A stretch of 64,000 nt of DNA from Ferrovibrionaceae bacterium. Lineage in GTDB: Bacteria; Pseudomonadota; Alphaproteobacteria; Ferrovibrionales; Ferrovibrionaceae. The notes beneath the pieces are model-generated. The model searched no databases. It had not been told where the DNA came from and worked only from the letters and a program-made list of their open reading frames with translations. Below are positions 8,522 to 44,890 of the stretch, in pieces. The DNA is taken from NCBI GenBank assembly GCA_965229335.1, contig OZ245874.1, positions 5,860,736 to 5,924,735 on the forward strand, read 5' to 3'. Position numbers and translations under genes: made by a program. Every line of letters begins with the position of its first letter. Position 1 is the stretch's first letter.

Positions 8522-9820
8522 ATGACGGAAACCGTCGAGATCGCCACCGCGCTCGGCCGGCTGGCCGGACGGCGCGAAGGCGGGGCCCTAGCCTTCCGCG
8601 GCGTGCCCTATGCCGGGCCGACGCCACGCTTTGCCCCACCCACCCCGTCGGCCGCCTGGTCCGGAACCCGCGATGCCGGCGTGGACGGTCCGATCCCGCC
8701 GCAATCGCGGTCACGGCTGGCCCTGGTGATGGGCGATTTCGACAAGCCGCAGTCGGAAGACTGCCACTGGCTGACGATCTGGACACCGGCGGCCGACGGG
8801 CGCAGGCGGCCCGTGCTGTTCTGGATCCATGGCGGCGGATTTTCGTCCGGGGCGGGATCGCTGCCCTGGTATGACGGCGCGACCCTGGCCGCGCTGGGCG
8901 ATATCGTCGTGGTGACCCCGAACTACCGGCTGGGTCCGTTCGGCTACCTGCTGGCACCCGGCCTGTCCCCGGCCAATCTCGGCCTGCTCGACCAGGCTGC
9001 CGCACTGGCCTGGGTTGCCACGCATATCGCGGATTTCGGCGGCGATCCCGATGCCATCACCGTCGGCGGCCAGTCGGCGGGCAGCCATTCCACCCTGCTG
9101 CTGGCCCTGCTCGGCGGCATGCCGATCCGCCGCACCATCCTGCAGAGCGCGCCGCTCAGCCTTGCACCGCTGGCCGAAGGGCGCGCCGTCGAACTGGGGA
9201 AGATGTTCCTCGACCTGCTGGACGGCGATCCCCGCACCCTGCCGGCGGGCCAGTTGCTCGCCGCCCAGGGGAAACTCGCCGCGGCCATCGCCAGACCGGG
9301 CGATCCGACCCCGCCCTTCATGCCGGTCGCCAGCGGGGCGCTGGCGCGCGACTGGGCCGGCGCGCTGGACGAGGTTGCGGCCGCGACCGACACGCTGGTC
9401 GGCGCCACCGCCCACGAGATGGCAGCCTTCGTGCCGATGACCGCCGAGAACCGCGCCGGCGTGCTTGCCACGGGCAATGCGCTGTTCAACGCGCCGACGC
9501 GCGACTACGCGGCCGCGGCCGACGCTGCCGGCCGTTCGGCCTATCTCTATCGCTTCGACTGGCTCTCGCCCCAGGACGGGCGCGGGGCCTGCCATTGCCT
9601 GGAACTGCCCTTCGTGCTCGGCCGGGCCGGCGCCTGGGACGACGCCCCGATGCTGGCCGGCGCCGACCCCGGCGCCATCGCCGACCTGACCCGGACGATG
9701 CAGCGGGCCTGGATCGGCTTCGTCCGCGACGGCGATGCCGGCTGGCCGGCCTGGCGGCGCGACGCACCGACCACCCTCAGCCTCGACACCCCCGCCACGA
9801 CCTTCGCCTGGCCGCTCTGA
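8522..9820 (+). CDS. Carboxylesterase type B (para-nitrobenzyl esterase-like)
   Basis: 432 aa. It has the WIHGGGF oxyanion motif and the GGQSAGS nucleophile elbow. Confidence 0.85.
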   Translation: MTETVEIATALGRLAGRREGGALAFRGVPYAGPTPRFAPPTPSAAWSGTRDAGVDGPIPPQSRSRLALVMGDFDKPQSEDCHWLTIWTPAADGRRRPVLFWIHGGGFSSGAGSLPWYDGATLAALGDIVVVTPNYRLGPFGYLLAPGLSPANLGLLDQAAALAWVATHIADFGGDPDAITVGGQSAGSHSTLLLALLGGMPIRRTILQSAPLSLAPLAEGRAVELGKMFLDLLDGDPRTLPAGQLLAAQGKLAAAIARPGDPTPPFMPVASGALARDWAGALDEVAAATDTLVGATAHEMAAFVPMTAENRAGVLATGNALFNAPTRDYAAAADAAGRSAYLYRFDWLSPQDGRGACHCLELPFVLGRAGAWDDAPMLAGADPGAIADLTRTMQRAWIGFVRDGDAGWPAWRRDAPTTLSLDTPATTFAWPL

Positions 9821-9831
9821 AGGAGATACCG

Positions 9832-10977
9832 ATGCGCCGCCTGATCGCCCCCGCACTCCTGCTCGCCTCGCTCAGCGCCCCTGCCTTCGCCGCCGACCCC
9901 GTCAAGGTCGGCATGATCACGACGCTGTCCGGGCCGGGCGGCTATCTCGGCGAGGACATGCGCGACGGCTTCCGCCTCGGCGCCACCGGCGCGACGGTGC
10001 CGATCGAACTGCTGGTCGAGGACGACGCGCTGAAGCCGGGGACTGCAAAGCAGATCGCCGAGCGCATGCTGAAGAGCGACAAGGCGCGGATCTTCACCGG
10101 CACGATCTTCACGAACGTCTTCCTGGCGATCGCCCCCGACCTGCTGGAATCGGGCGCCACGGTGCTCGCGAACGTTCCCGCCCCCAACAACTATGCCGGC
10201 AAGGAATGCGAGCCGGGCTACTTCAACTCGGGCTGGGACGAGACGCTGCATGCGTCGGCCGGCCAGCTGGCCAACAATCTTGGCTACAAGAAGATATTCC
10301 TTATCGCGCCGAACTACCAGGCGGGCAAGGACGTGATCGCCGCGGTCAAGCGGATGTACAAGGGCGAGGTCGCCGGCGAACTCTACACCCGTCTCGACCA
10401 GACCGACTTCGCCGCCGAAATCGCCCAGATCCGCGCCGCCAAGCCGGACGCGCTCTACCAGTTCCAGCCCGGCGGCCTCGGCATCACCTTCATCAAGCAG
10501 TACGCCCAGGCCGGGCTGAACCGCGAGATCCCGATGGTGGTCGCCTCGCCCTCGCTCGATGCGCGGATTCTCTCGGCCGTCGGCGATGCCGCACTGGGCA
10601 TGCAGGTCGCGGCCAACTGGTCGACCGGCTTCGACAACCCGGCCAGCCAGGAATTCGTCGCGAACTTCCGCAGCAAATACGGTCGCGAACCGACCGTCTA
10701 TGCGGCACACGGCTACGATACCGCGCGGCTGATCGGCGCCGCCCTGGCCAAGTCGGGGGGCAATCCGGATGCGCCCGCCTTCCGCACGGAGTTGGCGAAG
10801 GCCGACTTCCCCACGGTGCGCGGCCATCTGCGCTTCGCCTCCAATCACGGCCCGGTCCAGGACTGGTATCGCCTCAGCGTCGAGCCCGGCGCCGACGGCC
10901 GGCCGGCGCTGGCGCTCAAGGAGAAGTTCATGCCCGATGCCGGCGGCTATCTCGCCGACCAGTGCAAGATGAAGTGA
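9832..10977 (+). CDS. ABC transporter periplasmic substrate-binding protein (Leu/Ile/Val-binding, type 1 PBP family)
   Basis: ATG 9832 follows AGGAGA. The signal peptide is MRRLIAPALLLASLSAPAFAADPVKVG, and the mature start ITTLSGPGGYLGEDMRDG is typical of the family. Confidence 0.8.
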   Translation: MRRLIAPALLLASLSAPAFAADPVKVGMITTLSGPGGYLGEDMRDGFRLGATGATVPIELLVEDDALKPGTAKQIAERMLKSDKARIFTGTIFTNVFLAIAPDLLESGATVLANVPAPNNYAGKECEPGYFNSGWDETLHASAGQLANNLGYKKIFLIAPNYQAGKDVIAAVKRMYKGEVAGELYTRLDQTDFAAEIAQIRAAKPDALYQFQPGGLGITFIKQYAQAGLNREIPMVVASPSLDARILSAVGDAALGMQVAANWSTGFDNPASQEFVANFRSKYGREPTVYAAHGYDTARLIGAALAKSGGNPDAPAFRTELAKADFPTVRGHLRFASNHGPVQDWYRLSVEPGADGRPALALKEKFMPDAGGYLADQCKMK

Positions 10978-30456: not shown

Positions 30457-30921
30457 ATGTCAGCGAACGCGACCGACGATACCGTGCCGGCCGGCTTCAA
30501 GCCGTTCCCGATAGCGGAGGGTTTTGCCGCCCATAATGGCCCGCTCTATATCCGGCGCGATGCCGGGGGCGGCGTGCGCCTGGGTTTCCGGGTGGAACGC
30601 CAGCATCTGAACGCCGGCGGGGTGTGCCATGGCGGCATGCTGATGACGCTGGCCGACATGGCGCTGGGAATTTCCGCGACCGTCGCCGCCGGCGGGCGCA
30701 AGTTCCTGCCGACCGTGACGATGGCGACCGAATTCCTGCGTCCGGCCGAGCTCGGCCAGTGGGTCGAGGCGATCGGCGAGCCGTTGCGCATCACCCGCAA
30801 CCTCGGCTTTTCCGTCTGCCGGGTGATGGCGGGCGACGAACTGGTCCTCCATGCCTCGGGCACGCTGAAGGTGCCGCAGGCCGAATGGGCCCATGACTTC
30901 AACCAGATCCTCGCCGATTGA
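30457..30921 (+). CDS. PaaI-family hotdog-fold thioesterase
   Basis: 154 aa. It has the [18 protein letters not shown] motif. Confidence 0.75.
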
Positions 30922-32732
30922 GCGCCATGACCGAGCTGTCCCAGATCCGCAATTTCTCCATCGTCGCCCATATCGACCACGGCAAGTCGACCCTCGCCGA
31001 CCGCCTGATCGAGGCTTGCGGCGCGCTGGAAAGCCGCGAGATGACCAGCCAGATCCTCGACTCGATGGATATCGAGCGCGAGCGCGGCATCACCATCAAG
31101 GCCCAGACCGTGCGGCTGCGCTATCGCGCCAAGGACGGCAAGGACTACGTGTTCAACCTGATGGACACGCCCGGCCATGTCGACTTCGCCTATGAAGTCT
31201 CGCGCTGCCTTGCCGCCTGCGAAGGCTCGCTGCTGGTGGTCGACGCCTCGCAGGGCGTCGAGGCGCAGACGCTGGCCAACGTCTACCAGGCGATCGAGGC
31301 CAACCACGAGATCGTGCCGGTCCTGAACAAGATCGACCTGCCGGCGGCCGACCCCGAGCGGGTCAAGGCGCAGATCGAGGAGGTGATCGGCCTCGACGCC
31401 TCCGACGCCGTCGAGATCTCGGCCAAGACGGGCCTGGGCATTCCCGACGTGCTGGAGGCGCTGGTCACCCGCCTGCCGCCGCCGAAGCACGGCGACCGCG
31501 ATGCGCCGCTGAAGGCGCTGCTGATCGACAGCTGGTATGACGCCTATCTCGGCGTCGTCGTGCTGTTCCGCATCATCGACGGGGTGATGAAGAAGGGCAT
31601 GAAGGTCCGCTTCATGTCGAACAAGTCTAACTACCTGGTCGAGCGTGTCGGCGTGTTCAACCCCAAGCGCACGATCGTCGACGAGCTCGGCCCCGGCGAG
31701 GTCGGGTTCCTGACCGCCGCGATCAAGCAGGTGGCCGACACCAATGTCGGCGATACCATCACCGACGACCGCAACCCGATCGCCGAGCCGCTGCCCGGTT
31801 TCAAGCCGTCGGTGCCGGTGGTGTTCTGCGGCCTGTTCCCGGTCGACGCCGCCGATTTCAACGTGCTGCGCGAGAGCCTCGCGAAACTGCGCCTGAACGA
31901 TGCGAGCTTCCATTTCGAGACCGAGAGCTCGGCGGCGCTGGGCTTCGGCTTCCGCTGCGGCTTCCTCGGTCTCCTGCATCTGGAGATCATCCAGGAGCGG
32001 CTGGAGCGCGAATTCAACCTCGACCTGATCACCACCGCCCCCTCGGTGGTCTACAAGGTCTACATGACCGACGGGACGATGCAGGAATTGCACAACCCCG
32101 CCGACATGCCCGACGTGATGAAGATCGACCGCATCGAGGAACCCTGGATCAAGGCCCAGATCCTGGTGCCGGACGAGCATCTCGGTTCGATCCTGAAGCT
32201 GTGCGAGGACCGCCGCGGCCGGCAGGTCGAGCTGACCTATCACGGCAGCCGGGCGATGGTGACCTATCGCCTGCCGCTGAACGAGGTGGTGTTCGATTTC
32301 TACGACCGGCTGAAATCGGTCAGCCGCGGCTATGCCTCGTTCGACTACCAGATGGACGGGCACGAGATCGGCGACCTCGTGAAGATGTCGATCATGGTCA
32401 ATGCCGAGCCGGTCGACGCGCTCGCCATGATCGTGCACAAGAGCCGGGCCGAGATGCGCGGCCGCCAGCTCTGCGAGCGGCTGAAGGAGCTGATCCCGCG
32501 GCAGCTGTTCAAGATCGCGATTCAGGCGGCGATCGGCGCCCGCGTCATCGCCCGCGAGACCATCTCGGCGATGCGCAAGGACGTGCTGGCCAAGTGCTAC
32601 GGCGGCGACATCAGCCGCAAGCGCAAGCTGCTCGACAAGCAGAAGGAAGGCAAGAAGCGCATGCGGAACGTCGGCAATGTCGAGATCCCGCAGGAAGCCT
32701 TCATCGCAGCCCTGAAGATGAACGACGACTGA
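30918..32732 (+). CDS. lepA: Elongation factor 4 (translational GTPase LepA)
   Basis: [34 protein letters not shown] and the characteristic LepA C-terminus are present. Confidence 0.95.
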
Positions 32733-33135: not shown

Positions 33136-33223
33136 GGAGGGATGGCCGAGCGGCTTAAGGCGCACGCCTGGAAAGCGTGTTCACCGAAAGGTGTCGAGGG
33201 TTCGAATCCCTCTCCCTCCGCCA
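33136..33223 (+). tRNA. tRNA-Ser (anticodon GGA)
   Basis: Folded by hand. The acceptor GGAGGGA pairs with TCCCTCC, and the anticodon arm is CACGC-CTGGAAA-GCGTG. It has a long variable arm (TCACCGAAAGGTGTC), T arm GAGGG-TTCGAAT-CCCTC, discriminator G and an encoded CCA. Confidence 0.9.
33207..33223 (+). repeat. attL core: TCCCTCTCCCTCCGCCA (3' end of tRNA-Ser)
   Basis: Identical to 41198-41214. The flanking bases differ on both sides. Confidence 0.85.
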
Positions 33224-33313
33224 GCCATAGCCAAGCCCTTGATATCTCATCAAGTTCTTGGAATCCCTGGCTAATTTCTTCTCGTTACTCCATTGGACTG
33301 TTACAGTGGAGAC

Positions 33314-35044
33314 ATGGAGAAGATGCCCGGACATCCCCGTCTGTATCGTCGTGGCGCGGTCTATTGGCACCGCGCCGCCGTACCCGTCGACATTGCCGAT
33401 ACCTACCCGAAAACCGAGGAAACGTTCTCCCTTCGGACCAAGGACCGAAACGAGGCCCTGAAGCTCGTTCGGATCGAGGCGGCGCGGGTGGATCGCCTGT
33501 TCGACGAACACCGCAAGCGGGTGGCGGCGGCGGCGGGGCCGACCGTGGACGAATTGACCGATGCCCAGGTCAAGGCGATCGGCGAGGCGTACTATGCGAT
33601 GCTGCTGCAAGAGGACGATGCACGGCGCCTCAGGGAATTCGAAGGGAAGTCATTTGAGGAGCATTTAGAGGACATCGCGGGCCTATCCGCTGTCGCTCGC
33701 CACGAGTTTGCGCGCGGAGAAATTAGCGACTTCGACGCCGACGAGGCCGAAGATTTCATGGCCTCCGACTGGGTGGGCGTGAAGCTGTCACCAGATAGCC
33801 CGAGCTGGCCCCGCGTCGCCCGCGAGATGAAAGCCGCCCGCATCCGGGCCTATGCGGCCAAACAATCCCGGAGCGACGGCGAACCAGTACCTACCCCTGA
33901 ACCGCCGCCGCCTTTGTCCTCACGCCAGAAGGCGCGCGGGTCAAGCCGCCTGCTGTCCGATGAGGTCAAGGATTGGATGGCCGAGAAGACCCGGACTTCA
34001 TGGGTCCCGAAGACCGAGCATGAACACCGCGTATGGATGGGGCATTTTATCACGATCGCGGGTGACAGGCCGTGGCTGGACTACAACAAGGCCGACGCGC
34101 GGGCCTTCAAGGCCGTCTTGATGCGCCTCCCCGCCAACTGGAACAAGTTCGACGCGCTGGCCCCCCTGGGGATCGCAGAAGCGTCCGACCGAGCCCATGA
34201 GCTTGGCTTACCGCCCATGTCCGAAAAGAACCTGAACAAGCTCCTGGGGTATGTCGGGTCGTTCTGGACCTGGGCGAAGGACAATCACGACGACTGCCCC
34301 GAAAACCCGTTCAGGGGCCTCAAGCTCAAACTCAAGGGCAAGAACGTCCGCGATGAGCGCCACCCGTTCACCCTCGACGAACTGAAGGCGATCTTCCGCG
34401 CACCTATCTTCACAGGCTGTAAATCAGCAACCGAATGGGCAGCGCCGGGCGCTTTTGTACCCCGCTCCGCGGGCATCTTCTGGGTGCCTCTCATAGGCCT
34501 CCTGACCGGCGCGAGGCTCGGCGAAATCATCCAACTCCGAACGTCGGACGTTCGCGCGGATCAGGGCATCACGTATCTGGACCTCAACGACGACGGCGAA
34601 GACAAGCGCCTCAAGACCGCCCACAGCAAGCGGATGGTCCCGATACATGCCGAGCTTGTTGCGGCTGGCTTCCTTGAGCTTGTCGATCAGCGCCGCCGGG
34701 CTGGCCAGGAACGGCTATTCCCTGACCTGGGGATGGGGGCGGACGGGTACTATTCGTCGCCGTTCTCGAAGCATTTCAGCCGTTTCCTGACCCGTGTCGG
34801 GGTCAAGACCCGGAAGAACGCCTTCCACTCGTTCCGGCATTGCTTTGAGGACGCCTGCCGTGACAGCGACATCTCCAAGGAGGTCATGGACGCCCTTCAG
34901 GGGCACGGCGAGGAAGGCATGTCGGGGCGGTACGGGCGTGGGTATGTCCTGAAGAAACTGGCCGAGGCGATGGGGCGCTTGCGATACGACGGGCTCGACT
35001 TATCGCACCTTCACATTCGTCAAGCGGGGGATGAGAGGCGTTGA
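33314..35044 (+). CDS. int: Tyrosine-type site-specific integrase (large, with an N-terminal extension typical of alphaproteobacterial island integrases)
   Basis: The C-terminal catalytic region reads GARLGEIIQLR ... HSFRHCFEDACRD ... LQGHG ... GRYGRGY (R...HxxR...H...Y). Its position next to the tRNA supports the call. Start at ATG 33314 or nearby. Confidence 0.9.
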   Translation: MEKMPGHPRLYRRGAVYWHRAAVPVDIADTYPKTEETFSLRTKDRNEALKLVRIEAARVDRLFDEHRKRVAAAAGPTVDELTDAQVKAIGEAYYAMLLQEDDARRLREFEGKSFEEHLEDIAGLSAVARHEFARGEISDFDADEAEDFMASDWVGVKLSPDSPSWPRVAREMKAARIRAYAAKQSRSDGEPVPTPEPPPPLSSRQKARGSSRLLSDEVKDWMAEKTRTSWVPKTEHEHRVWMGHFITIAGDRPWLDYNKADARAFKAVLMRLPANWNKFDALAPLGIAEASDRAHELGLPPMSEKNLNKLLGYVGSFWTWAKDNHDDCPENPFRGLKLKLKGKNVRDERHPFTLDELKAIFRAPIFTGCKSATEWAAPGAFVPRSAGIFWVPLIGLLTGARLGEIIQLRTSDVRADQGITYLDLNDDGEDKRLKTAHSKRMVPIHAELVAAGFLELVDQRRRAGQERLFPDLGMGADGYYSSPFSKHFSRFLTRVGVKTRKNAFHSFRHCFEDACRDSDISKEVMDALQGHGEEGMSGRYGRGYVLKKLAEAMGRLRYDGLDLSHLHIRQAGDERR

Positions 35045-35500: not shown

Positions 35501-36044
35501 GCTGGCCTCCGTGGTTGAGGTCGAGGCGACGATACCAGAACTGCCCCGCCGGTCCTACGGCCGGAGAGATAACCTCGATACCGGCCGCCTTGCCGATCGC
35601 CAAGATGATCTCCTCGGCCAGCTCGGGCTTGAACGCGACGCCGGGCTTCATCGGGCGCATTTCGCCATCCGAGACGGGAGCGAACAAGCGGACATGGATA
35701 CCCTATCCGTAGGAATGACTTACCCCTCCAGGAAGTCCGAGACGAAGCGGTTCCAGCGATCTATTCGACCGTCGAGGAATATTCCGCGCCCATCACCGCA
35801 TTGATGCGCACCGGGTTAATTCAGCTTCATGTGAGTGGCGGCGCTTGGGGCGGGGGCGGCGGCGCCAGCTACAATTTCACGCCCTTGATGGCCCGGCTCG
35901 CCGCGCTTGCACCGTTTGATCATCTGGCGTGATCAGCCGTTCAGTATGCGCGCAGTGCTGGAGCAAAACCATACGGCCCCCGTCATCTGACCCATGGACC
36001 ACGGTCGGCCCATAGTCCGCCTCAGGTCAAACCGAGGAGGACCC

Positions 36045-36158
36045 ATGATCAAGATCAGGAAACTAAAGCTGGGCACGGTGCTTCTGGTGGTCGCCCTTCC
36101 GGCCGTCACCGCCCATCTGTTCGACAAGCTGTCCGTCGTCGTGATGATCGTCGTGTGA
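36045..36158 (+). CDS. 37-aa hydrophobic mini-protein (below the track's length cutoff)
   Basis: My translation is MIKIRKLKLGTVLLVVALPAVTAHLFDKLSVVVMIVV. GAGGAGG lies just upstream of the ATG. Confidence 0.4.
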   Translation: MIKIRKLKLGTVLLVVALPAVTAHLFDKLSVVVMIVV

Positions 36159-36286
36159 ACCGGGCAGAGGGACGCAGGGATGGCCGATCGCTGTCCCTAC
36201 GGTTTCCCGGTCGGGCGGGGGCGGTGGTGGGTCGTGGTCGAGGACGATATGCAGGCTGGCTTACGGCTTCTACTACGCTCGGGGAA

Positions 36287-36348
36287 ACCTGAAGTCATAC
36301 CCTAAGGGTACCTGAAGGTATCCCTTCGGTACGACCTCCACAGGTACC
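36287..36348. repeat. Cluster of phased GGTAC/GGTAT motifs (starts 36307, 36317, 36328, 36343) plus a direct repeat ACCTGAAG(T/G)(C/T)AT(A)CC
   Basis: Read directly. The spacing is 10, 11 and 15 bp. The cluster sits just 3' of the polymerase-like gene. Further GGTAC copies lie at 37742 and 38046 in island intergenic DNA. Confidence 0.55.
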
Positions 36349-36379
36349 ATTCCCAAGCATGTCATATGGAGGATACCGC

Positions 36380-37648
36380 TTAGGTGACCTTCAAGACTGC
36401 GTTGGTCCCGGTGATGGCTCGGTACTTGTCGGAGAGGACCGCCACCGCCCTCTCAAGGTTCGACCTGGGCACCACCAGGGCATCATGAACGGGTAGCGCC
36501 ACCACGCTCTCATCACCGAGCGCCAGCAAGGTAGCAACCATGACCGTCGCCTCCGTCTTCATTGCCTTGAGCCCCGCGCCGGTACCGAAGAGGCTGGCTA
36601 TCGGCTTGTGTCTTTCAGTCAGAAGCTTGGTGACGAGGTCGATGGTCGCATGCCGCGGAAGCAGGGCCTTGGTGCCGCCAGGGAGCCGCCATAGGGGCTT
36701 CGTCGTCGACAGCATCGCGTTGAGGACTTTCTTCAGCCCCTCGCGTCGCCCTTGGAAGCTCGGATCGTCGACCGCATAGGCGTCCTCATCGGCCGGGAAT
36801 TCCAGCCCTGCGCCAGCGTAGACGAACCTGACCGCCGCTGATCGCATGTCGACCTCACCGACCTCCTCGCCGCCGATACGAAGCTTCGACAACCGATCGT
36901 CTCCGCTCATGTTTTGCCAGAAGGCCCCGTAGAGGCGCCCGCCGTGGTCAAAGTCGACGTTGAACACCCGACGCATGGACCGGGTGCCGACATGGGGGCG
37001 GGTGATATCCCGAAGGTCCGCGACGGCCAGCCGGCGGTTGATGGTCTGCATTTCCTCGCGCCAACGGGTCGTGTCTGCGGTCTCCTCATAGTCGACCTCC
37101 GCCCCCGTCTCGCCGTTGACCTTCTCGGCCCGGAGGATGATGGTCTCCCCCTTCTGGCTGTCTGCGAAGTCGTCGGCGGTGAGCCCTTCGCTCGCCAGAA
37201 GCCCAGCCATCGCCGGGCCGGCGCTCATGACCGACTGTCGGCGCTCTTTCCGTGGCCTGTGGATTCCCTGCGGGGCGACAGTCGAAACCAGGAAGCCGCA
37301 CGCCGGGTCACTCAGTAGGTCGACGATGCCCGGGAGCTGAGTATTGAGCGCCGGGGCCTTGTAGCGGTCGCGGCTACCGAGGAAGCCCAAAGCGCGCGGG
37401 TAGGTGACGGCAAGGTCGGGCTCGGTGAGATACACCCGTGCCAATTCCGATACGATCGCTTCGACGGTAGCGCGGAAGGTTGCCTCATCGGCCGCCTTAC
37501 GAGCCCGCTGGCGGGGTTTCACGGATGGCTCGGCGCCGAGGGCGCGGGAAACGATGAAGGCCACCAGCGAGGCCCCAGCGGGCGACGCGGGGCGGTACCA
37601 GCCGGTGAACCAATGGTCACGGTCTTCGGGATCGATAAGGGGGCTCAA
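36380..37648 (-). CDS. Orphan 422-aa protein with family-A (PolA-like) polymerase motifs; candidate minimal polymerase/replicase
   Basis: Hand alignment to Taq/Klenow. GGRLYGAFWQNMS matches TGRLSSSDPNLQNIP, and VGEVDMRSAAVRF matches motif A (VALDYSQIELRV). RREGLKKVLNAML matches motif B (RRAAKTINFGVLY). GTGAGLKAMK...LPVHDALVV matches QGTAADLMK...QVHDELVL (motif C). Both metal-binding Asp are present (D267, D389). Confidence 0.55.
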   Translation of the reverse strand: MSPLIDPEDRDHWFTGWYRPASPAGASLVAFIVSRALGAEPSVKPRQRARKAADEATFRATVEAIVSELARVYLTEPDLAVTYPRALGFLGSRDRYKAPALNTQLPGIVDLLSDPACGFLVSTVAPQGIHRPRKERRQSVMSAGPAMAGLLASEGLTADDFADSQKGETIILRAEKVNGETGAEVDYEETADTTRWREEMQTINRRLAVADLRDITRPHVGTRSMRRVFNVDFDHGGRLYGAFWQNMSGDDRLSKLRIGGEEVGEVDMRSAAVRFVYAGAGLEFPADEDAYAVDDPSFQGRREGLKKVLNAMLSTTKPLWRLPGGTKALLPRHATIDLVTKLLTERHKPIASLFGTGAGLKAMKTEATVMVATLLALGDESVVALPVHDALVVPRSNLERAVAVLSDKYRAITGTNAVLKVT

Positions 37649-38338
37649 GGGGCCTCGTAGCGGGGTTCTGTCTGGGGTCAGGGGGATATGCCAGGCGCCT
37701 CAAAAGGGACCAGGTCAAGGGAGGCGATGGAGAACTGGAGGGGTACCGTGGGGCCGGACTGTTCCGTCTGGGTTGCGTCTAGTTTTCTAAATTTGCCTTG
37801 CCGGCCCGCCTAAGGTTCGTCCGTTGTCGCGCCATGCGGTGTTCTGTCTAACGTGCGTCCTTTGTCGCCCCCCTCTAACGCGGGGATAGTTTCGACCTCG
37901 GGGTTCTCGTTACTCGCGGTGGGTGCTTCGTCATCGCCTGCGTCATATGTGGGTCCGGTATCGGCAGCCGGTTCATCCGCTTCATTCCCCGACCGATGCA
38001 CTGCCGATAGCCGGCTTTGGCGATGACCGTAAAGGGTCCTAAAGGGGTACGCCGGGATGGTGCGCAGTGGCGTCAGCCACATAAATGATTGTTATAATAT
38101 GACCAAAAGGAGAAATTTCCTATGTGAAGTATCTCCATCGCGGCCAACCACCCCCGCCGACCGCCTCAGGCCCCCATACAGCCGCCTCGGCCCCGCTCCG
38201 CCGCCCACCCTAAGCCGCCCCATGAAACCCGCCCAGCGGCCTCCCAGGGGCGCCTACGGGCACGCTGCGGGAGACTATCGGGGACCAGAAAGGGCCGCCA
38301 AACAGCAGCCCTCGTAATCGTCCCCTCCCCGCCTCAGT

Positions 38339-38896
38339 TCACGCCCTCCCGATGATGCGATAGACCGACGACCGACCAATCCCGAGCCGCTTAGCGATTT
38401 CCGCAACGGGGACCTTCTCGGCATGCAGGGCCTCGACCTCCGCCGCCTTGGCCGTCGCCGTGGGCTTGCGGCCCTTGTACTTCCCCTCGCTCTTGGCCTT
38501 CGCGATGCCCTCACGCTGCCGCTCAAGCATCATCTCCCGCTCGAATTGGGCGATGGAGCCGAGAAGGTTCACCATGAGCTTCCCTGTGGGTGTCTCCGTA
38601 TCGAGGTTCATTGCGAGAACCCGAAGGCTCGCCCCCCTCTCGGCAATCTCGCCGACGATCCGCGACAGGTCGGCCACCGACCGGGCCAAGCGGTCCAGCT
38701 TGGTCACCACCAGCACGTCACCATCCCGGAGATAGTCGAGGGCCGCTTCTAGCTCCGGGCGCTTCCCCTGCGACGAAACCTGTTCGCGGTAGAGCTTCGT
38801 TGCCCCTGCGGCCTTCAGGTCCCGTATCTGGGCCTCAAAGCCCGCTTCCTGTTCCACGGTGCTGGTCCGCGCGTACCCGATCACCATGCCCGTCAT
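38339..38896 (-). CDS. Small serine recombinase (resolvase/invertase family)
   Basis: MVIGYARTSTVEQEAGFEAQIRDL...VVTKLDRLARSV...FEREMMLERQREGIAKAK plus the C-terminal HTH VAEIAKRLGIGRSSVYRII. The catalytic Ser is in YARTST. Start at ATG 38896 or 38887. Confidence 0.9.
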   Translation of the reverse strand: MTGMVIGYARTSTVEQEAGFEAQIRDLKAAGATKLYREQVSSQGKRPELEAALDYLRDGDVLVVTKLDRLARSVADLSRIVGEIAERGASLRVLAMNLDTETPTGKLMVNLLGSIAQFEREMMLERQREGIAKAKSEGKYKGRKPTATAKAAEVEALHAEKVPVAEIAKRLGIGRSSVYRIIGRA

Positions 38897-39950
38897 GTCT
38901 GCCCCCACATTCCCAATGAAATCTTAGACATAGTGGTGAATAATGCTCCAAAATGCAATACCCATTTATTTGGGGCATGATTTGGGGCGTCGGACCAAGG
39001 CCCGCAGGACCAGGGTCTATTGGGAATGGGGAGGCTGGGGATGGTTGGGCGCGCTCGACGCAACCCTGCCCTCAATCCCCCAGGTTGACCCAATGTCTCC
39101 CGATGGACGGCCCGCGCCCCGTGACCAGTCCAGCGCTTCCGCCCGAATGCGCACCGTCCTTCAGACCGCTCCTTGCCCGCGCATGGCTCCCTCGCCGTCA
39201 CGCCCGCGGTCGACCGATCGGGAACCCTCAGAAAATTCAGGCCGGGCGATCGGTACCCCCGGGGTGTGCCGGCGGGTGGGGGTCTTTCAAAAAGACCGCT
39301 AAAGCTCCGCGCGCGCGGTTAATTTTGGGTCAGACCTTCGGCAGTGAGGGCGGCCCCGGAAAAAGCAGAGGTAGCGACGGGGGGATGACTTTCGGCGTAG
39401 ACTTGATTATACTTAGCTGCCCTTAGGCCGGGAGCCCCTGTGGCCGAGAATTACATCTCGCGCAAAAGCAGGCCCCTCCCTCATGGAATATGAAAAAGGA
39501 CGAGGCGATGTTGAACATCGTTCTCCAAGTAGACCTGAACTCAGTTCTGGTTGCGTTGGCGTTTGCTATTAGCTTGAAACGCTAGTCGGGCTGGGGAGGT
39601 GGGTCGCCTGCCTCCCCATCTTACCAGTCCGCCTCCGCGCTACATGCGCCCCATCTCCTCGCGGCACCCATCCGTCCGCGCAAGAGCCCTATGCATTTAC
39701 CTGGAGAAGCGCGACGGCTATATGACCGGTCGCTGGCGTATCGAGGTCAGTCCACCCTACCAGCCCAGGCGCGCGCCGAGCGTGCCCGGACCTACCGTCC
39801 GCAACCTCAGAAACCGGTAGAGGCAGCAAGTGGAAGCGTCGGATTGGCCACGGGAATGCAAGAACTCGTTGTCGAGCCCAAGGAGTTCGTTGGCCTATTC
39901 GGCGACGCCCCAGCCCACTAACCGTCACAGTCCAAAATCAGCAAAACAAG

Positions 39951-40907
39951 CTAGTCATCTTTGTTGACGACGCCACCACAATAATCACACAAAGCATGAT
40001 TATCATAATAGGCATTATTAGGGGTGATTTCGACACCACACCTTATGCAATCCTCAAGAACATAGCCACACCATACGCATCCAACATATTCACCATCCAT
40101 AACATAGGTTCCAAGAGCGCACTCCGGGCAATCTTGAACATGTGGATTACCGCCATCCTTCGCAGCCATGTAATTCTCAACTGCGAAAGGTGTATCAAGA
40201 GAATGAACAAATATGTCCTTGGCGCTATTTTCCTCGCTACAAGAGCGACACCTGAATTCGGCTGACTGAAAATCATCGTTATCTGGGTTGACCTGTGCGA
40301 CTAACCGCGACCCACAATCCACGCAGACCAGATCAATCCCAGAAAGATAATCGACTGGCTCCCATGTGAAATTGCTCATAGTCGCCTTGCACTCGATCAA
40401 CTCTTTCTCAAACAGCAACTTTACTGCTTCGAGTTCCGCCCATGTTTCACCCAGTTCAATTTCTGGATTAAGCTTCATATGTCTGAACAGCAAAACGACA
40501 ACAGGGAATGCCTTAACGATCGCCTCGCGTACTGCAGGTTGCGTGGCTTGAGTATAAGCATGCTCAATGTCATTCCTAACCTCATTTAATGAGGTCAATA
40601 GCTTTCTATCGATTTCAATGCGAAAATCATTCAAGCGCTCGTTTATAGTTTCAAAGTCGAGCGTCTTTTTTCCCTTAGCTTTAATCTCCACCTTGCCGTC
40701 GCCATTCAATACGATCTTAAGATTAGAAGCCAGGATTATTTTTGCACTCTCATTGGGAGTAGCTCGAACCAACGTTTCTTTGGCGAGCAACAGAAGCCCA
40801 GAGTAGAAATTCCGTACAGCCGACAGCGGGCGCTTAGGATCATTTGATTTGTAATCCTCAAGCCCGAGCTGAATTGACTGGATAGCGTTGTCGAACAACG
40901 AGTTCAT
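39951..40907 (-). CDS. AT-rich orphan: predicted HEPN-like helical domain (Rx4H motif) fused to three C-terminal CxxC...CxxC zinc ribbons
   Basis: The N-terminal ~150 aa are all-helical with LNEVRNDIEHAY (R126-x4-H131 in track numbering). The C-terminus has CVDCGS..CRSCS, CPECAL..CVWCGY and CIRCGV..CDYCGG. The start is uncertain (ATG 40907, 40919 or 40952). Composition is far more AT-rich than all surrounding DNA. Confidence 0.6.
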   Translation of the reverse strand: MNSLFDNAIQSIQLGLEDYKSNDPKRPLSAVRNFYSGLLLLAKETLVRATPNESAKIILASNLKIVLNGDGKVEIKAKGKKTLDFETINERLNDFRIEIDRKLLTSLNEVRNDIEHAYTQATQPAVREAIVKAFPVVVLLFRHMKLNPEIELGETWAELEAVKLLFEKELIECKATMSNFTWEPVDYLSGIDLVCVDCGSRLVAQVNPDNDDFQSAEFRCRSCSEENSAKDIFVHSLDTPFAVENYMAAKDGGNPHVQDCPECALGTYVMDGEYVGCVWCGYVLEDCIRCGVEITPNNAYYDNHALCDYCGGVVNKDD

Positions 40908-41197
40908 GATGTCACCCATTATTATGGTGCAACGCAAAAACTCTGGACGCATTCAAGCGAGGCACCGCCGAAGCGGCTACTTCTCCATTTTGCACACCGC
41001 AACCGCCACCGCGCAAGCGGCTGGATATCCAGATTGTCGAACCGCCGAAAAGAGGGAGCCGCCACCTTCCGTCTACTCCGGATTAATGTTTGCCTCCAAC
41101 CCGCTTGCGGGCTGTTACAGTGAGATGCTACATCTAAGGCTCGGACAACGAGCGTAGAATGGCGGAAATCCTAGGGTTTTGACTCCTCTCACGAGGT

Positions 41198-41214
41198 TCC
41201 CTCTCCCTCCGCCA
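41198..41214 (+). repeat. attR core: TCCCTCTCCCTCCGCCA (17-bp copy of the tRNA-Ser 3' end)
   Basis: Read directly. Only the last 17 nt of the tRNA are duplicated, so this is not a tRNA gene. Confidence 0.85.
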
Positions 41215-41255
41215 CGTCCACTCTGGACACTGGCCGCTTCCGTCCCCGACCCCCT

Positions 41256-42149
41256 TTACCGTTTGAAGCAGTTCTCCCGATGCCAGGCCAGGAAATCGGG
41301 GTGAGGCCGTTCGGCTGGCCGCAACGGGGCAAAGGCACGCCCGCTTCTGTTGATGAAGCCGCGCACCCCGTCGGGATCGTTCACCTGGCGAGAGATCAGG
41401 ATTTCCAACTCGTTGCTCAGGCTGATCAGGCCACGGTCGAACATCCAGTGCGCGGTGCCTGAAAGCGCGATGCCATTCGAAACCGCGTCGGGACCGTCAT
41501 GCTCGACCGGGCGAATATGCGCGGCATCGACCTCGGCGCGTCCGCCGCCATTGATCAGTTTAAGGCCGCTGATCGCGCAGCGTTCGTCATAGGCGCGGAG
41601 CACGACACGCCGGAAATTGCGGTCACGCACCGCACGGGTGGCAATGAAACTGACGCGGTCGCGCTGTTGGACAAAGGGAGCGCGCTCGTCGTTCAACCCG
41701 AGCGGCGGCAGGGCTTCGCCGAGCCGCGGCAGCAACGGTTCGTGATCGTCGAGGCCCAGCCCGACGATGCGATTGAAGTCCTCGGCCGAAATCGGTCGCA
41801 CCGCCGCCTGGGCGCGGCCGGAAAGCCGGCCGGTGTCATTCAGCAAGCCGCGTTCGATGACACCATCGGGGCCGGTAAAGGGGACGGGATTGGCAAAATC
41901 GAGATAGCTGCCCGGCTCGATATGCGCGAGATACATGCCGGAGACCTTGGGATCCGGACTGATCCGGCTGACCCGCGCCACCGCAAAATAGCCGCGCGTC
42001 CGCGCGACCTTGGCCGGCTCGAGGTACAGGATCCAGTCGCCTTCGCTGGCCCGGGCACGGCCAAGATACTGGCTGGGGAACTGATAGCGCGCGGCGGGGC
42101 TGTCGTCGTAGATCGAATCGGCGCGGTGGATGAAGACCCCGTATCCCAT
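41256..42149 (-). CDS. HNH endonuclease (HNH_2/COG3440-like) with an N-terminal PUA/EVE-like domain; candidate modification-dependent (type IV) restriction enzyme
   Basis: The C-terminus YDERCAISGLKLINGGGRAEVDAAHIRPVEHDGPDAVSNGIALSGTAHWMFDRGLISL is an H-N-H core. The N-terminal ~150 aa (ARYQFPSQYLGRA...GDWILYLEP...GYFAVARVSRI) resemble PUA-like reader domains. Assigned from memory. Confidence 0.65.
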   Translation of the reverse strand: MGYGVFIHRADSIYDDSPAARYQFPSQYLGRARASEGDWILYLEPAKVARTRGYFAVARVSRISPDPKVSGMYLAHIEPGSYLDFANPVPFTGPDGVIERGLLNDTGRLSGRAQAAVRPISAEDFNRIVGLGLDDHEPLLPRLGEALPPLGLNDERAPFVQQRDRVSFIATRAVRDRNFRRVVLRAYDERCAISGLKLINGGGRAEVDAAHIRPVEHDGPDAVSNGIALSGTAHWMFDRGLISLSNELEILISRQVNDPDGVRGFINRSGRAFAPLRPAERPHPDFLAWHRENCFKR

Positions 42150-42383
42150 TCAACCTGTATAGCGCGGCAGGCGCGCCGTCTCACGCCCGAAAATGCCGCG
42201 CCCCGCCCGATGGCCGGTATGAAGCCGGTCGCGCATGGCCAGATGCTGTGCTCGATCGCCACCGCCATTGGGCGGGCCATGCGTTCGCCTATGCCGCAAT
42301 GCGCCTGCATGATCCGGTCGGCGAAATCGGCGGGATGTCCGTCACGAAGCCGCCCATGAAGGCACGCTACCCGTCAAGCCGGG

Positions 42384-42416
42384 AAAAAAAAGGGGGGACG
42401 CCGTCAGGCGCCCCCC
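42384..42416 (-). terminator. Rho-independent terminator downstream of the secreted-protein gene
   Basis: The minus strand reads GGGGGGCGCC-TGAC-GGCGTCCCCCC followed by T8. That is a 10-bp stem with one G-U pair and a U-tract. Confidence 0.75.
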
Positions 42417-42439
42417 GAAGAAAGACCGGCAGCAGGTCG

Positions 42440-43399
42440 TCAGTTGCCGCGCAGCCGGGCGGCAAGCGCCGTCACGGCGTCGGTCAAGGCCGGGTCGGCG
42501 GGAACGGCGTCGGCCCCGGCCGAGGCCAGCGCATCGGCGGCAAGCTTGGCCGTCTCGACCGCACCGGGCGCGGCATTCGCCACGATGTCGGCGGCACTGC
42601 CTGCCCCGAACAGATTGGCTTCGCCGGCGATCGCCGCCCGAACCCCCTGGACGCGATAGCGCGTGCCGCTGCCCGGCGTCAGCCAGTACTGGCCGCGGAA
42701 TTCGTTGGTCGGCATCGAGATCAGATAGGTCTCGGTTATCGTCGATCCGACATAGATCAGCAGACACTGACCCGCGAAACTGCCGGAAGTGTAGCATTCG
42801 CCGGCATAACCGCTCGGCGCGCAGGAGACGAAACCGGTACCGCCCGAATTGACCGGCGAGCCGACCGTCGAGCACCGGACGATGCCGCCATAGCTGCTGG
42901 AATAGGTCGGCGAGCCGATCGAATAGGCGAACGCCCATTGGCCCAGCAACGGATTCTGGGAATCGGAGAACGTATAGCGGGACAGCGGGATCATGGCCGA
43001 TCCGCCCGAACCGAAAGGCCCGCTGGAGCCAAGCGACAGGGTCGCCCTGCTGGCGGTGCTGAAGGTCAGCGTTGCCGTGCCGGCCGAGGTACCTGCCGGC
43101 GATGTCATGGCACAGCCCAGACACTGGCCGCCGCTGTACTTGGTGAGGTTTGCCGAGAACGTCGGATAGCCGGACCCGTTCAACGAGTATCCGCCCGTGG
43201 CGTAGTACCAGACCGGCGCCAGGCTGCCGGTCTCATAGACGTAGATGATCAGCGTCATCTGCGTCCCCTGTTGCTCGATCGAATAGCCGCGCCCGCCCTC
43301 GCTCGGGTTGAAATAGATACCGCTTTCGATCAGCGCGGCACTGGCGGTGCCAATCCACGCACACAAAAAGCCCGCCAGAATTCCCAATAATACACGCAT
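42440..43399 (-). CDS. Secreted Cys-containing Gly/Ser/Tyr-rich protein of unknown function
   Basis: The signal peptide is MRVLLGILAGFLCAWIGTASA. It has 8 Cys in the mature part (GQCLGCAM, VRCS, VSCAP, GECY, GQCLL) and an Ala-rich C-terminal tail. No family recognised. Confidence 0.6.
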   Translation of the reverse strand: MRVLLGILAGFLCAWIGTASAALIESGIYFNPSEGGRGYSIEQQGTQMTLIIYVYETGSLAPVWYYATGGYSLNGSGYPTFSANLTKYSGGQCLGCAMTSPAGTSAGTATLTFSTASRATLSLGSSGPFGSGGSAMIPLSRYTFSDSQNPLLGQWAFAYSIGSPTYSSSYGGIVRCSTVGSPVNSGGTGFVSCAPSGYAGECYTSGSFAGQCLLIYVGSTITETYLISMPTNEFRGQYWLTPGSGTRYRVQGVRAAIAGEANLFGAGSAADIVANAAPGAVETAKLAADALASAGADAVPADPALTDAVTALAARLRGN

Positions 43400-43693
43400 T
43401 GTAATCCTCCCTCTTTTCCGATTCTCAGCATAACAGTGTGCTTTAGGGGAGTCAGGCCATGATGATGGTTAATATGAGAGCACTATGTTGAGTTTATATT
43501 TCTGTATCGATGAAATATCGGCACAGTTGTATTTTAATAGGTGCATTTTTATGGATAGAAGCGCGGCAATCCGCCAAAAATCTGGCAACCGAACGCGACG
43601 CCGCCAGCAGCCGGCGGCGATGGAAGCCTCGTCCTGAGGTTGCACGGTGCTGTGGCCTGGCTATCGCTGCGACGGCCGGGCCGGCTGGTGCGC

Positions 43694-43885
43694 CTATTTC
43701 TGCGACTTGTCCGTCGACGCCGGTGGCGACCACTTGCCGGCTTCCATGTCGGCCAGCGCGCCAAGGAGCACGCGGCGCAGGAAATCGCCTTGCCGGGTGT
43801 CGCCGCGCTGCGCGTCGATCCGCGCCTTGGTACCCTCGGGGGCGCGGATGAAGACGTCTTCCGTGTAGAGCTTCGGCTTGGGCAT
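43694..43885 (-). CDS. Ribbon-helix-helix (Arc/CopG-like) small DNA-binding protein
   Basis: Internal ATG 43885. MPKPKLYTEDVFIRAPEGTKARIDAQRGDTRQGDFLRRVLLGALADMEAG fits a beta-strand/helix/helix RHH pattern. Weak assignment. Confidence 0.45.
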   Translation of the reverse strand: MPKPKLYTEDVFIRAPEGTKARIDAQRGDTRQGDFLRRVLLGALADMEAGKWSPPASTDKSQK

Positions 43886-44117
43886 TGCCCTTCGTTTAGC
43901 CTGCGACTCACCGCTAGCGCAATCGGTCATATCGTCCGTCCCCCGCGTCAATGCGGCATTAATCGATAGCGCAATCGCTTATTGACGTGATTAAGCGCTA
44001 GCACTTATAGTGTCGACCCGAGCTTTGCAGCCAGAGGCCCTATCCCATGCGCAGCACCGCAGGGCTGATGCCCACGGCATGACCGGACCCGACCCGTCAT
44101 GCAGGCCGCACCGGCGG

Positions 44118-44651
44118 TCAATCAAGCGCCGCGGCGGCGGGCCGCGCCCCCTTGCGGCGCGAGGCCGCCCGGTCGGCGCCATAGCCGAGCAGGTCGTTCG
44201 GCGACAGGTCGAGCGCACCGCACAGCGCGTGCAACATGGCCAGGCCCGGCTCGTTCCGGCCGCGGGCATAATGGCCATAACGCGTCGTGCTGATGCCCAG
44301 CCGGCCAGCCAATTCGGTATCGGTCAGTCCCTGGCGCAGGCTGAGCGCGCGCAGACGCCGACCGAAGCTTTCGGCATCGAGCGCGATGTCGTCGGCCGTG
44401 CTGTCGCGCATCGCGGCCTGGATCATCTCGCCAGCCTCCATCCCCGCCGCGGCGGCCAGCGCCTCGAGCGTGCCCGACGGAATTTTGCCACCATTGAAGG
44501 CCGCCGAGACGACGCCATAAGGCAAGCCCGCGAGTTTTGCCCAATTTGCCCGCGTCTTAAGCAGAGACTTCTTTTCCGTAAGCACCTTTCGCAGCGCGAA
44601 AGCAAAAATGGCTCCGCCGGCGTCCCGGCGGATCTGCCTGCTTTTTGTCAT
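44118..44651 (-). CDS. XRE (Cro/CI) family transcriptional regulator, apparently with two HTH-like halves
   Basis: ATG 44651 is preceded by GGGGGAG. The C-terminal half FGRRLRALSLRQGLTDTELAGRLGISTTRYGHYARGRNEPGLAMLHALCGALDLSPNDLLGY is a classic XRE HTH. The N-terminal half (ALRKVLTEKKSLLKTRANWAKLAGLPYGVVSAAFNG) looks like a second, degenerate copy. Confidence 0.75.
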   Translation of the reverse strand: MTKSRQIRRDAGGAIFAFALRKVLTEKKSLLKTRANWAKLAGLPYGVVSAAFNGGKIPSGTLEALAAAAGMEAGEMIQAAMRDSTADDIALDAESFGRRLRALSLRQGLTDTELAGRLGISTTRYGHYARGRNEPGLAMLHALCGALDLSPNDLLGYGADRAASRRKGARPAAAALD

Positions 44652-44890
44652 CACAACAAACTCCCCCACGACCACTAAAAAATCTACTTCAAGGTATTTC
44701 AATACGCAAATATTATTATGCATGACGTTTTTTGGTTGTGCCAAACATTCATTAAGCAATGGTCTTGAATAATTTCACTACTTATTAGGGTGATTTGTTG
44801 ATGACAAAATGCGCATTGATGCTCGCCATACGATTGCGGAAGTGCGCGGGCTGGTAGCAGGCGCAGGATTGCGGACGGACGACTGGCGAC

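Follow-up and report, generated by a model that had tools for sequence, protein, structure and literature searches.

A probable minimal family-A polymerase of the TV-Pol/divPolA2 kind is a backbone gene of a tRNA-Ser island in a Ferrovibrionaceae bacterium

The stretch of DNA analysed here (the window) comprises 64,000 nt of the forward strand of contig OZ245874.1 (positions 5,860,736 to 5,924,735; assembly GCA_965229335.1) from a Ferrovibrionaceae bacterium. On its minus strand lies an open reading frame (ORF) for a 422-aa protein that is, with high confidence, a nucleotidyl transferase derived from DNA polymerase I (PolA) and provided with an intact two-metal site. The gene is a backbone component of an island of ~8 kb inserted at a tRNA-Ser gene, in the company of a DUF6538 integrase and a resolvase, with a candidate defence gene as cargo. 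The protein probably belongs to the assemblage formed by the TV-Pol and divPolA2 polymerases; it represents a known, computationally described kind and not a new one, and the clade is very large. The role that we favour, replicase or primase-polymerase of the excised island, has in our judgement an even chance or slightly better of being correct, and is argued from genomic context and from the precedent of CCPol, a polymerase of staphylococcal cassettes.

An AlphaFold2 model of the 422-aa protein, built on a 28-sequence alignment, reached a predicted local distance difference test score (pLDDT) of 90.2 and a predicted template modelling score (pTM) of 0.84. Comparison of this model with the PDB using Foldseek returned exclusively family-A DNA polymerases among the 50 matches listed (E values from 4e-5 to 9e-4, probability ~1.0), including KlenTaq, Bst, Klenow, M. 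smegmatis Pol1 and apicoplast Pol. In the predicted viral structures of BFVD, the best matches were phage proteins of 400-450 aa (E from 1e-16 to 1e-22, template modelling (TM) scores of 0.50-0.70), while canonical phage PolAs ranked lower in the same list. The 'DNA polymerase' of Rheinheimera phage Barba31A matched the model with a TM score of 0.55 (E = 2e-19), and a protein of Aeromonas phage 2L372X was also a structural match.

We compared by hhalign a profile of 192 family members with a PolA profile made from nine phage PolAs, T7 DNA polymerase (DNAP) and E. coli Pol I. This phage-based profile was adopted because a homologue search seeded with the polymerase domain of E. coli Pol I gave only sequences at 70% identity or above, too uniform to be of much use for a diverse profile. 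The resulting P value was 8.5e-5 in the local and 1.5e-5 in the global mode, with a probability of 57-60%, and the local signal (probability 60%) spanned motif A and the fingers Asp. A greedier alignment brought all motifs into register and in collinear order, pairing D267 with D705, R302 with R754, K306 with K758 and H388-D389 with H881-D882 of E. coli Pol I. When the family was aligned with E. coli Pol I, T7 DNAP and T7 RNA polymerase (RNAP), each as a single sequence, significance was not reached; at that level E. coli Pol I picked up motif A, T7 DNAP picked up motif C (VHDE to PVHDA), and T7 RNAP gave nothing relevant. The RNA_pol model of Pfam matched neither the protein nor 28 family members. 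An earlier note, made by a model from the sequence alone, had proposed the PolA kinship by hand alignment and named profile and structure comparison with the PolA palm and fingers as its check. By Foldseek, BFVD and hhalign that similarity is significant. Judged from the predicted structure and the alignments, the likeness of the protein to PolA is thus more than chance.

Conservation over the 192 homologues is very high at the residues of the catalytic core. R238, G237 and D267 are present in all 192, R227, Y291, R302 and K306 in 191, D289 and D389 in 189 and H388 in 188, which bears out the expectation of the earlier note that the two aspartates (D267, 192/192; D389, 189/192) would be conserved. 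In the model, strands 226-230 and 236-240 form the Arg hairpin of the core, which would contact the template, D267 ends strand 261-268, the R302-x3-K306 pair sits in helix 302-314 and D389 lies within hairpin 385-394. Motifs A and C are ~120 aa apart here versus ~177 aa in Pol I, and the fingers are much shorter. All motif strings quoted in the earlier note (HGGRLYGAFWQN, EVDMRSAAVRF, RREGLKKVLNAML, GTGAGLKAMK and PVHDALVV) were found in the translation with the numbering of D267 and D389 as given there, and the 422-aa ORF, minus strand and TTG start included, occupies exactly the place it had been assigned.

The residues by which Pol I discriminates against ribonucleotides and keeps its fidelity follow a different pattern and are not conserved. 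E710 and F762 are the residues of Pol I that exclude ribonucleotides, and T7 RNAP selects ribonucleoside triphosphates (rNTPs) via Y639, at position K+8. At position D+5, equivalent to E710, Glu is missing from the seven commonest residues in the 192 homologues, namely A (51), G (42), S (35), N (15), V (9), C (8) and M (7). Position K+4, equivalent to F762, is N, Q, S, A or G across the homologues, in agreement with the remark in the earlier note that the aromatic residues of motif B are missing. K+8, equivalent to Y766, is F in 88, N in 49, H in 12, S in 10 and Y in 10 of the 192, at a place where the alignment is of low confidence. The residue after D389, equivalent to E883, is A, G, C or S, so that motif C reads HD[A/G/C/S] versus HDE. 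T7 RNAP (NC_001604) has G542, M635 and HDS at the D+5, K+4 and motif C positions.

A family-specific N-terminal domain of ~215 aa stands where the canonical thumb and exonuclease region would be. It begins with a long helical hairpin (H23-43, H52-75) carrying the invariant residues R46, R48 and R50 in its connecting loop, continues with an alpha/beta module and closes with helix 191-209, which holds the invariant N204. Modelled alone, the domain reached a pLDDT of 80. Its fold search against the PDB gave no match at E < 0.1 (best E = 0.14, no exonuclease), and the weak matches were mostly MarR-type winged-helix proteins. From the model, the domain is possibly a thumb or a DNA-binding module. 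Neither Pfam nor NCBIfam detected an exonuclease domain, and residues 1-218 had no significant PDB fold match, as the earlier statement that such a domain is lacking would have it.

The polymerase reading frame is intact and full length, with a GAGG 4 nt upstream of the TTG, an arrangement repeated in the closest homologue. An entry of the public collections (P0001) is 100% identical to the protein. Comparison with a 72%-identical homologue (P0002) gave a ratio of nonsynonymous to synonymous substitution rates (dN/dS) of 0.28 overall, 0.24 for the Pol domain and 0.32 for the N-terminal domain; the gene is therefore under purifying selection. Scans of the protein with Pfam, NCBIfam and PADLOC returned nothing relevant, and the only library match was phrog_4756, of function unknown (E = 5e-24). 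A promoter and terminator scan of 35-39 kb of the window showed nothing convincing for the polymerase gene.

The earlier note had called the protein an orphan, which was wrong; the word is true only as absence of a Pfam, NCBIfam or PADLOC annotation. Besides the phrog_4756 match, a word-index search found 48 homologues, mostly of ~425 aa. With the 28-sequence family profile, 11,580 representative homologues were detected among 1.84 billion representative proteins at E <= 1e-3 and 4,828 at E <= 1e-30, almost all of them over the full length. A survey that took one genome from each species found 153 relatives, spread over Alpha-, Beta-, Gamma- and Deltaproteobacteria, Planctomycetota and further groups. 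UniProt names two of the full-length homologues, both 33% identical to the protein: 'DNA-directed DNA polymerase family A palm domain-containing protein' in one case, 'DNA-directed RNA polymerase' in the other. Rhodobacteraceae bacterium HTCC2083 has two copies of the polymerase gene (loci L050 and L052) ~2.8 Mb apart on one scaffold, a finding compatible with an active mobile element. A scan of viral contigs yielded only four loci with the family and little information.

The features of the island and of the polymerase are collected in the following table.

Table 1. Coordinates in the window of the polymerase gene, its parts and the island that carries it
Feature	Position	Strand	Evidence or remark
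Family-A-like minimal polymerase gene, 422 aa	36380..37648	minus	TTG start codon 37646-37648, stop codon 36380-36382; ORF list
N-terminal domain, residues 1-215	37004..37648	minus	Model secondary structure, invariant residues
Palm and fingers core, residues 216-422	36383..37003	minus	Conservation over 192 sequences, hhalign register
Beta-hairpin of core, R227 and G236-G237-R238	R238 codon 36935-36937
Motif A, D267; fingers D289/Y291	D267 codon 36848-36850
O-helix-like R302 and K306	R302 codon 36743-36745, K306 codon 36731-36733
Motif C, H388-D389	D389 codon 36482-36484
Degenerate iteron-like direct repeats, intergenic, upstream of polymerase	37665..37876	minus	One exact core ACGTTAGACAGAAC and ~3 degenerate copies
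tRNA-Ser(GGA), integration target	33136..33223	plus	ARAGORN; Rfam tRNA, 59 bits
attL, last 17 nt of tRNA-Ser	33207-33223		Direct repeat D2
attR, exact 17-nt copy of tRNA-Ser 3' end, TCCCTCTCCCTCCGCCA	41198..41214	plus	Far island end
Island tyrosine integrase (DUF6538 and Phage_integrase)	33293..35044	plus	Pfam
Small serine recombinase (gamma-delta resolvase and HTH_7)	38339..38908	minus	Pfam E = 5e-41; upstream of polymerase, same strand
Island cargo, 333-aa protein with Cys-rich C-terminus	39951..40952	minus	PADLOC PDC-S64 (phage-defence candidate), E = 2.6e-40

The gene order in the window is lepA (30918-32732), tRNA-Ser(GGA), tyrosine integrase, polymerase, resolvase and the gene of the 333-aa protein. 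The last 17 nt of the tRNA are repeated exactly at the far end, and the element is therefore an island of ~8 kb. The cargo gene has a GC content of ~46% versus ~68% in the surrounding sequence, and its product gives a weak double zinc ribbon match in Pfam. An Rfam scan of the island found the tRNA only. The homologue P0002 is encoded by a sister island (locus L001) that shows the same tRNA-Ser/lepA junction and the same 17-nt repeat pair. Integrase and polymerase are common to both islands, and blastn also aligned short stretches near the resolvase. By blastn, nothing in the sister island matched the DNA of the PDC-S64 cargo gene; the genes called there include a toxin-antitoxin pair and Bro-N, besides a resolvase and the polymerase. 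The ~370 nt on the 3' side of the polymerase stop codon (36007-36380) are also conserved between the two islands, within a 74%-identical DNA alignment that spans the gene as well; they hold no convincing ORF and no Rfam match. Within them, positions 36173-36190 resemble the 5' end of tRNA-Ser in 16 of 18 nt, which may be chance.

Some observations concern the DNA around the island. An HNH_2 endonuclease gene (41256-42149) lies outside attR in both genomes and is conserved (76%) in the corresponding place beside the sister island. The stretch from 41215 to 44800, outside attR, has a below-average GC content of 0.60-0.67 and contains this gene, unannotated ORFs and a Cro/C1-type helix-turn-helix gene (44118-44759); it may be the remnant of an older island at the same tRNA hotspot. 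Chromosomal genes resume at ~44.9 kb. Farther along, between 50001 and 53000, two 1-kb bins have a GC skew of about -0.2 and an AT skew of about -0.35, with a GC content of up to 0.73, a combination unique in the window.

Association with recombinases extends across the family. In 84 loci we clustered those ORFs that lie at most 5 kb from the polymerase gene; a DUF6538 tyrosine integrase occurred in 46, a resolvase in 42 and at least one of the two in 68. Some other elements have a different integrase or a large serine recombinase instead; a comM-like Mg-chelatase gene is the insertion site of one that has a large serine recombinase. In a very small element (L003) the polymerase gene stands between two integrase genes with one small ORF besides. 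The sole conserved unannotated partner in the 84 loci is a 239-aa Cys-rich protein that shows the pattern C...C...C-x-H...RHG and is not matched by Pfam; its gene adjoins that of the polymerase, up- or downstream, in 36 of them (for instance L035 7186-7905, plus strand). This protein could be an obligate partner of the polymerase, and its motif may fit 'C3RHD', a name in the supplement of the TV-Pol paper (PMC2579912). No D5-like helicase was linked to the polymerase in the loci examined.

Upstream of the polymerase gene both islands contain iteron-like repeats. In the window, GTTCYGTCT occurs three times in 64 kb, in every case within the repeat region listed in Table 1, against an expectation of 0.41; 3 of 100 shuffled sequences reached three occurrences. 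The exact repeat core occurs once in the window and is not significant alone. In locus L001 the enrichment is highly significant: all six matches to ACNTTAGA in 21 kb fall within 715 bp upstream of the polymerase and on the same strand, with 0.48 expected and none of 100 shuffles reaching six. The array there (9165-9879) consists of imperfect direct repeats of ~27 nt with the core ACSTTAGACAGAAC, and the repeat unit can be written ..GACAAAAnnnACnnACSTTAGACAGAAC. These repeats are a candidate origin or operator.

How does this polymerase relate to described systems? TV-Pol was defined by an N-terminal thumb built around two antiparallel helices, a beta-hairpin upstream of the palm that contributes an invariant Arg, an RRM-like palm whose two Asp chelate metal, fingers that follow the first palm strand and bear an Asp and RxxxK, and the lack of a nuclease; its genes lie in mobile elements or viruses, beside a resolvase, a lambda-type integrase, a transposase or a D5-like helicase; a subset with an extra N-terminal domain occurs, mostly in alphaproteobacteria, in elements with a resolvase, a lambda-type integrase or a transposase; the family was linked to PolA by HHpred at p < 1e-5 and predicted to be the primase-polymerase of mobile elements (PMC2579912). 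We examined eight features, seven of structure, sequence or context and an eighth consisting in a direct link to a named member. Five of them are present in the island protein: the hairpin with its Arg, both Asp of the palm, the fingers Asp with RxxxK, the lack of a nuclease, fused or as a conserved neighbour in the 84 loci, and the mobile-element context. The profile link to PolA holds approximately, the hhalign P values being of the same order and short of the published 1e-5. As for the thumb, the model contains a helical hairpin (H23-43/H52-75) that may correspond to it. Further likenesses are the size of 400-600 aa, the small mobile elements with a gamma-delta resolvase, a lambda-type integrase and sometimes Bro-N, and the occurrence mostly in alphaproteobacteria, for instance Rhodobacterales, Methylobacterium and Loktanella. 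One difference is that the N-terminal TV-PolN domain is described as all-helical (PMC2579912), whereas our model gives the island protein an N-terminal domain of mixed alpha/beta structure. No Brucella protein was among the 120 matches listed when a Mesorhizobium member served as search seed, and the family hidden Markov model (HMM) found no match across all 162 kb of Microcystis phage Ma-LMM01, in which MAP_134 is a DnaG-type primase. In the same phage, MAP_030 (L099 22746-24266), a 506-aa hypothetical protein beside IS605-type transposases, has TV-Pol-like motifs by eye only (GGGLQG..., NYDVVKCH..., ...QHDGALIH) and was detected neither by the family HMM nor by hhalign; it may be the TV-Pol of Ma-LMM01 mentioned by Iyer et al.

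The divPolA2 proteins of barbaviruses and other marine phages, ~430 aa long, combine a globular N-terminal domain of unknown fold with a PolA palm that has its catalytic residues, and are without exonuclease and canonical thumb (PMC11348598). Their architecture and size are those of the island protein. The sequence link is transitive and not direct: by tblastn, the protein finds Vibrio phage HNL01 (E = 2e-10), which in turn finds 115 Rheinheimera phages (2e-5) and Aeromonas phage 2L372X (5e-22), and identity to the phage proteins is ~25%. The divPolA2 genes are phage-encoded and lie in variable neighbourhoods, whereas ours is a backbone gene of chromosomal islands with integrase and resolvase. 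The earlier note had left the choice between TV-Pol membership and a new branch. The former holds for the five features named above, with an approximate profile link, and the protein is not a new branch needing a new name, because divPolA2 was described in 2024 (PMC11348598) and UniProt labels exist.

CCPol, encoded on SCCmec, a staphylococcal cassette chromosome, is an active polymerase that becomes a primase when bound to the protein MP; it prefers deoxyribonucleoside triphosphates (dNTPs) and retains the E710 and F762 equivalents (PMC7581432). Iyer et al. placed CCPol in TV-Pol, of which no other protein was characterised biochemically as of 2020 (PMC7581432). CCPol and the island protein are both A-family polymerase domains borne by integrative elements that have a serine recombinase as well; the island protein differs in having neither an MP-like nor a helicase neighbour and in the replacement of both discriminator residues. 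PolA primases of the SSB (single-stranded DNA-binding protein) type are marked by an adjacent MP with an oligonucleotide-binding (OB) fold and by a helicase in the operon; the neighbour clustering of the 84 loci showed no conserved helicase, and the 239-aa Cys-rich protein as the sole conserved unannotated partner. Pol I and T7 DNAP share with the island protein the palm and fingers fold and the collinear motif A Asp, O-helix R...K and motif C HD; the protein differs from canonical family-A enzymes in that the E710, F762, Y766 and E883 equivalents are not conserved and DNA_pol_A gives no match, and from Pol I in lacking the 3'-5' and 5'-3' nuclease domains. T7 RNAP is similar in the small residue at the steric gate (G542) and in the HD-Ser/Ala of motif C. 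It is twice the size, its N-terminal promoter-binding domain has no equivalent detected here, and T7-like RNAPs gave no Pfam match, no hhalign signal and no entry among the 50 PDB matches listed. The piPolB enzymes of pipolins and the archaeo-eukaryotic primase (AEP) family of primase-polymerases are functional analogues and not homologues (B-family and AEP, respectively), which are likewise found on small integrative elements beside recombinases (PMC10061031, PMC2579912). Their self-priming has been demonstrated experimentally, and for the island protein it is a proposal.

In the role that we favour, the integrase would excise the island, the polymerase would copy the circular element, possibly priming itself, the N-terminal domain would hold the template, the upstream iteron-like repeats would act as origin and the resolvase would resolve multimers. 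The analysis itself shows the ORF, its predicted fold, the register of the motifs, the conservation of residues, purifying selection, the boundaries of the island and the linkage to recombinases; we infer that the enzyme is catalytically active, primes de novo on a dNTP or rNTP substrate and replicates the excised island, with the repeats as origin. Several results weigh against this reading or against parts of it. As regards the kinship with PolA, global TM scores to solved PolA structures are only ~0.3 in the Foldseek search of the PDB; single-sequence and family-profile searches of PDB sequences gave chance-level matches only and no PolA; DNA_pol_A (PF00476) matched neither the protein at E <= 10 nor 28 family members at E <= 5; and motif A is the sole segment that carries statistical weight in the hhalign comparison (probability 60%). 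As regards catalysis, the protein and P0002 have D-M-R-S in motif A versus the near-invariant D-Y-G-Q of the family, and constraint on the polymerase is looser than on the island integrase (dN/dS 0.28 and 0.10). As regards replication, the 84 loci contain no conserved helicase, SSB, primase or other replication gene as neighbour, and CCPol needs MP to prime; the gene of the 239-aa partner is absent from the island in the window, and this copy of the polymerase may therefore lack a cofactor. Repeated 10-mers flanking the gene were not enriched in 79 loci (P = 0.95), in a test that is insensitive to degenerate iterons. Phages that encode divPolA2 have a regular PolB besides, and divPolA2 was considered unlikely to be their replicative enzyme (PMC11348598).

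The most substantial alternative, though an unlikely one in our estimate, is an enzyme that uses rNTPs, either as an RNA primase handing off to host polymerases or as a small single-subunit RNAP transcribing the genes of the island; it overlaps with the replicative role if its RNA serves as replication primer. Use of rNTPs is suggested because the steric gate is missing: the family lacks equivalents of E710 and F762 and motif C is HD[A/G/C/S], at positions where T7 RNAP has G542, M635 and HDS, while CCPol, which prefers dNTPs, retains both discriminators (PMC7581432). Activity as an RNA polymerase was considered for phage divPolA2 by Koonin and colleagues (PMC11348598), and one family member bears the RNA polymerase name in UniProt. 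Fold search and profiles do not favour this explanation, since the 50 PDB matches listed are all DNA polymerases with no RNAP, RNA_pol gave no match, and hhalign found nothing relevant in T7 RNAP while it recovered motif A with Pol I and motif C with T7 DNAP. Moreover, the Tyr that T7 RNAP has at K+8 (Y639) is not conserved, at a place of low-confidence alignment. We consider improbable a polymerase of establishment, which would convert incoming single-stranded island DNA, delivered by conjugative mobilisation or transformation, into the duplex used by the integrase, with no vegetative replication. Rice proposed such a role for the PolA-SSB primases of SCC elements (PMC10061031), and it would explain why there is no helicase, no clear origin in most loci and a tight pairing with recombinases; yet the island showed no relaxase, origin of transfer (oriT) or gene for transfer, and the iteron-like array of the sister island suggests a fixed initiation site.

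Very little weight falls on a role in a defence or counter-defence system, in which the enzyme would answer phage infection by making nucleic acid such as a decoy or a signalling polynucleotide. The island does carry the PDC-S64 candidate, Rice raised defence for PolA-SSB modules (PMC10061031), some related islands have large cargo genes with helicase motifs and resemblance to specificity subunits (clusters 9 and 17), and phage divPolA2 lies in variable neighbourhoods, sometimes in several copies. Nevertheless, the polymerase has no PADLOC match, its linkage is to recombinases with no constant effector, polymerase and integrase are common to the sister islands while the PDC-S64 gene has no DNA match in L001, and the PDC-S64 model matched a single cargo protein on its own. 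A backbone replicase fits better than a defence component because the gene travels with recombinases, the cargo varies and PADLOC finds no match; as primary explanation, defence was rejected on the lack of a PADLOC match and on the retention of the gene with the integrase while the cargo differs. About as doubtful, and marginally more so, is a polymerase relic, catalytically inactive or in decay, that is retained for its structure or to bind DNA. It would account for M, R and S in place of Y, G and Q at D+1 to D+3 of motif A, for the constraint looser than that of the integrase and for the missing 239-aa partner; the residues for two-metal catalysis and triphosphate binding, however, are all retained and near-invariant in the family, dN/dS is 0.24 in the Pol domain and the reading frame is intact and full length.

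What was a 'hypothetical protein' of the window now has a confidently assigned fold and family. If it primes or replicates alone, it would be a compact (~420 aa), exonuclease-free PolA scaffold with unusual sugar-selectivity residues, of interest for polymerase evolution and engineering. Primases were long held to form two families only, DnaG and AEP. CCPol-MP is a PolA-type enzyme able to prime (PMC7581432), and the present family is far larger, widespread in Proteobacteria and marine phages, and devoid of both the MP partner and the ribonucleotide-rejecting residues of Pol I. It is conceivable, if somewhat less probable than rNTP use by itself, that the clade is a self-sufficient, primer-independent polymerase that accepts ribonucleotides, that is, a single-chain RNA primase or RNAP of ~420 aa on a PolA core whose private N-terminal domain replaces the thumb and the ssDNA-binding partner. 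If so, small bacterial islands would carry a minimal cellular counterpart of the lineage of T7 and mitochondrial RNAPs. If the polymerase primes or replicates alone, many small islands regarded as 'non-replicative', including carriers of defence genes, would be autonomously replicating elements, and the modelling of island copy number, stability and spread would change.

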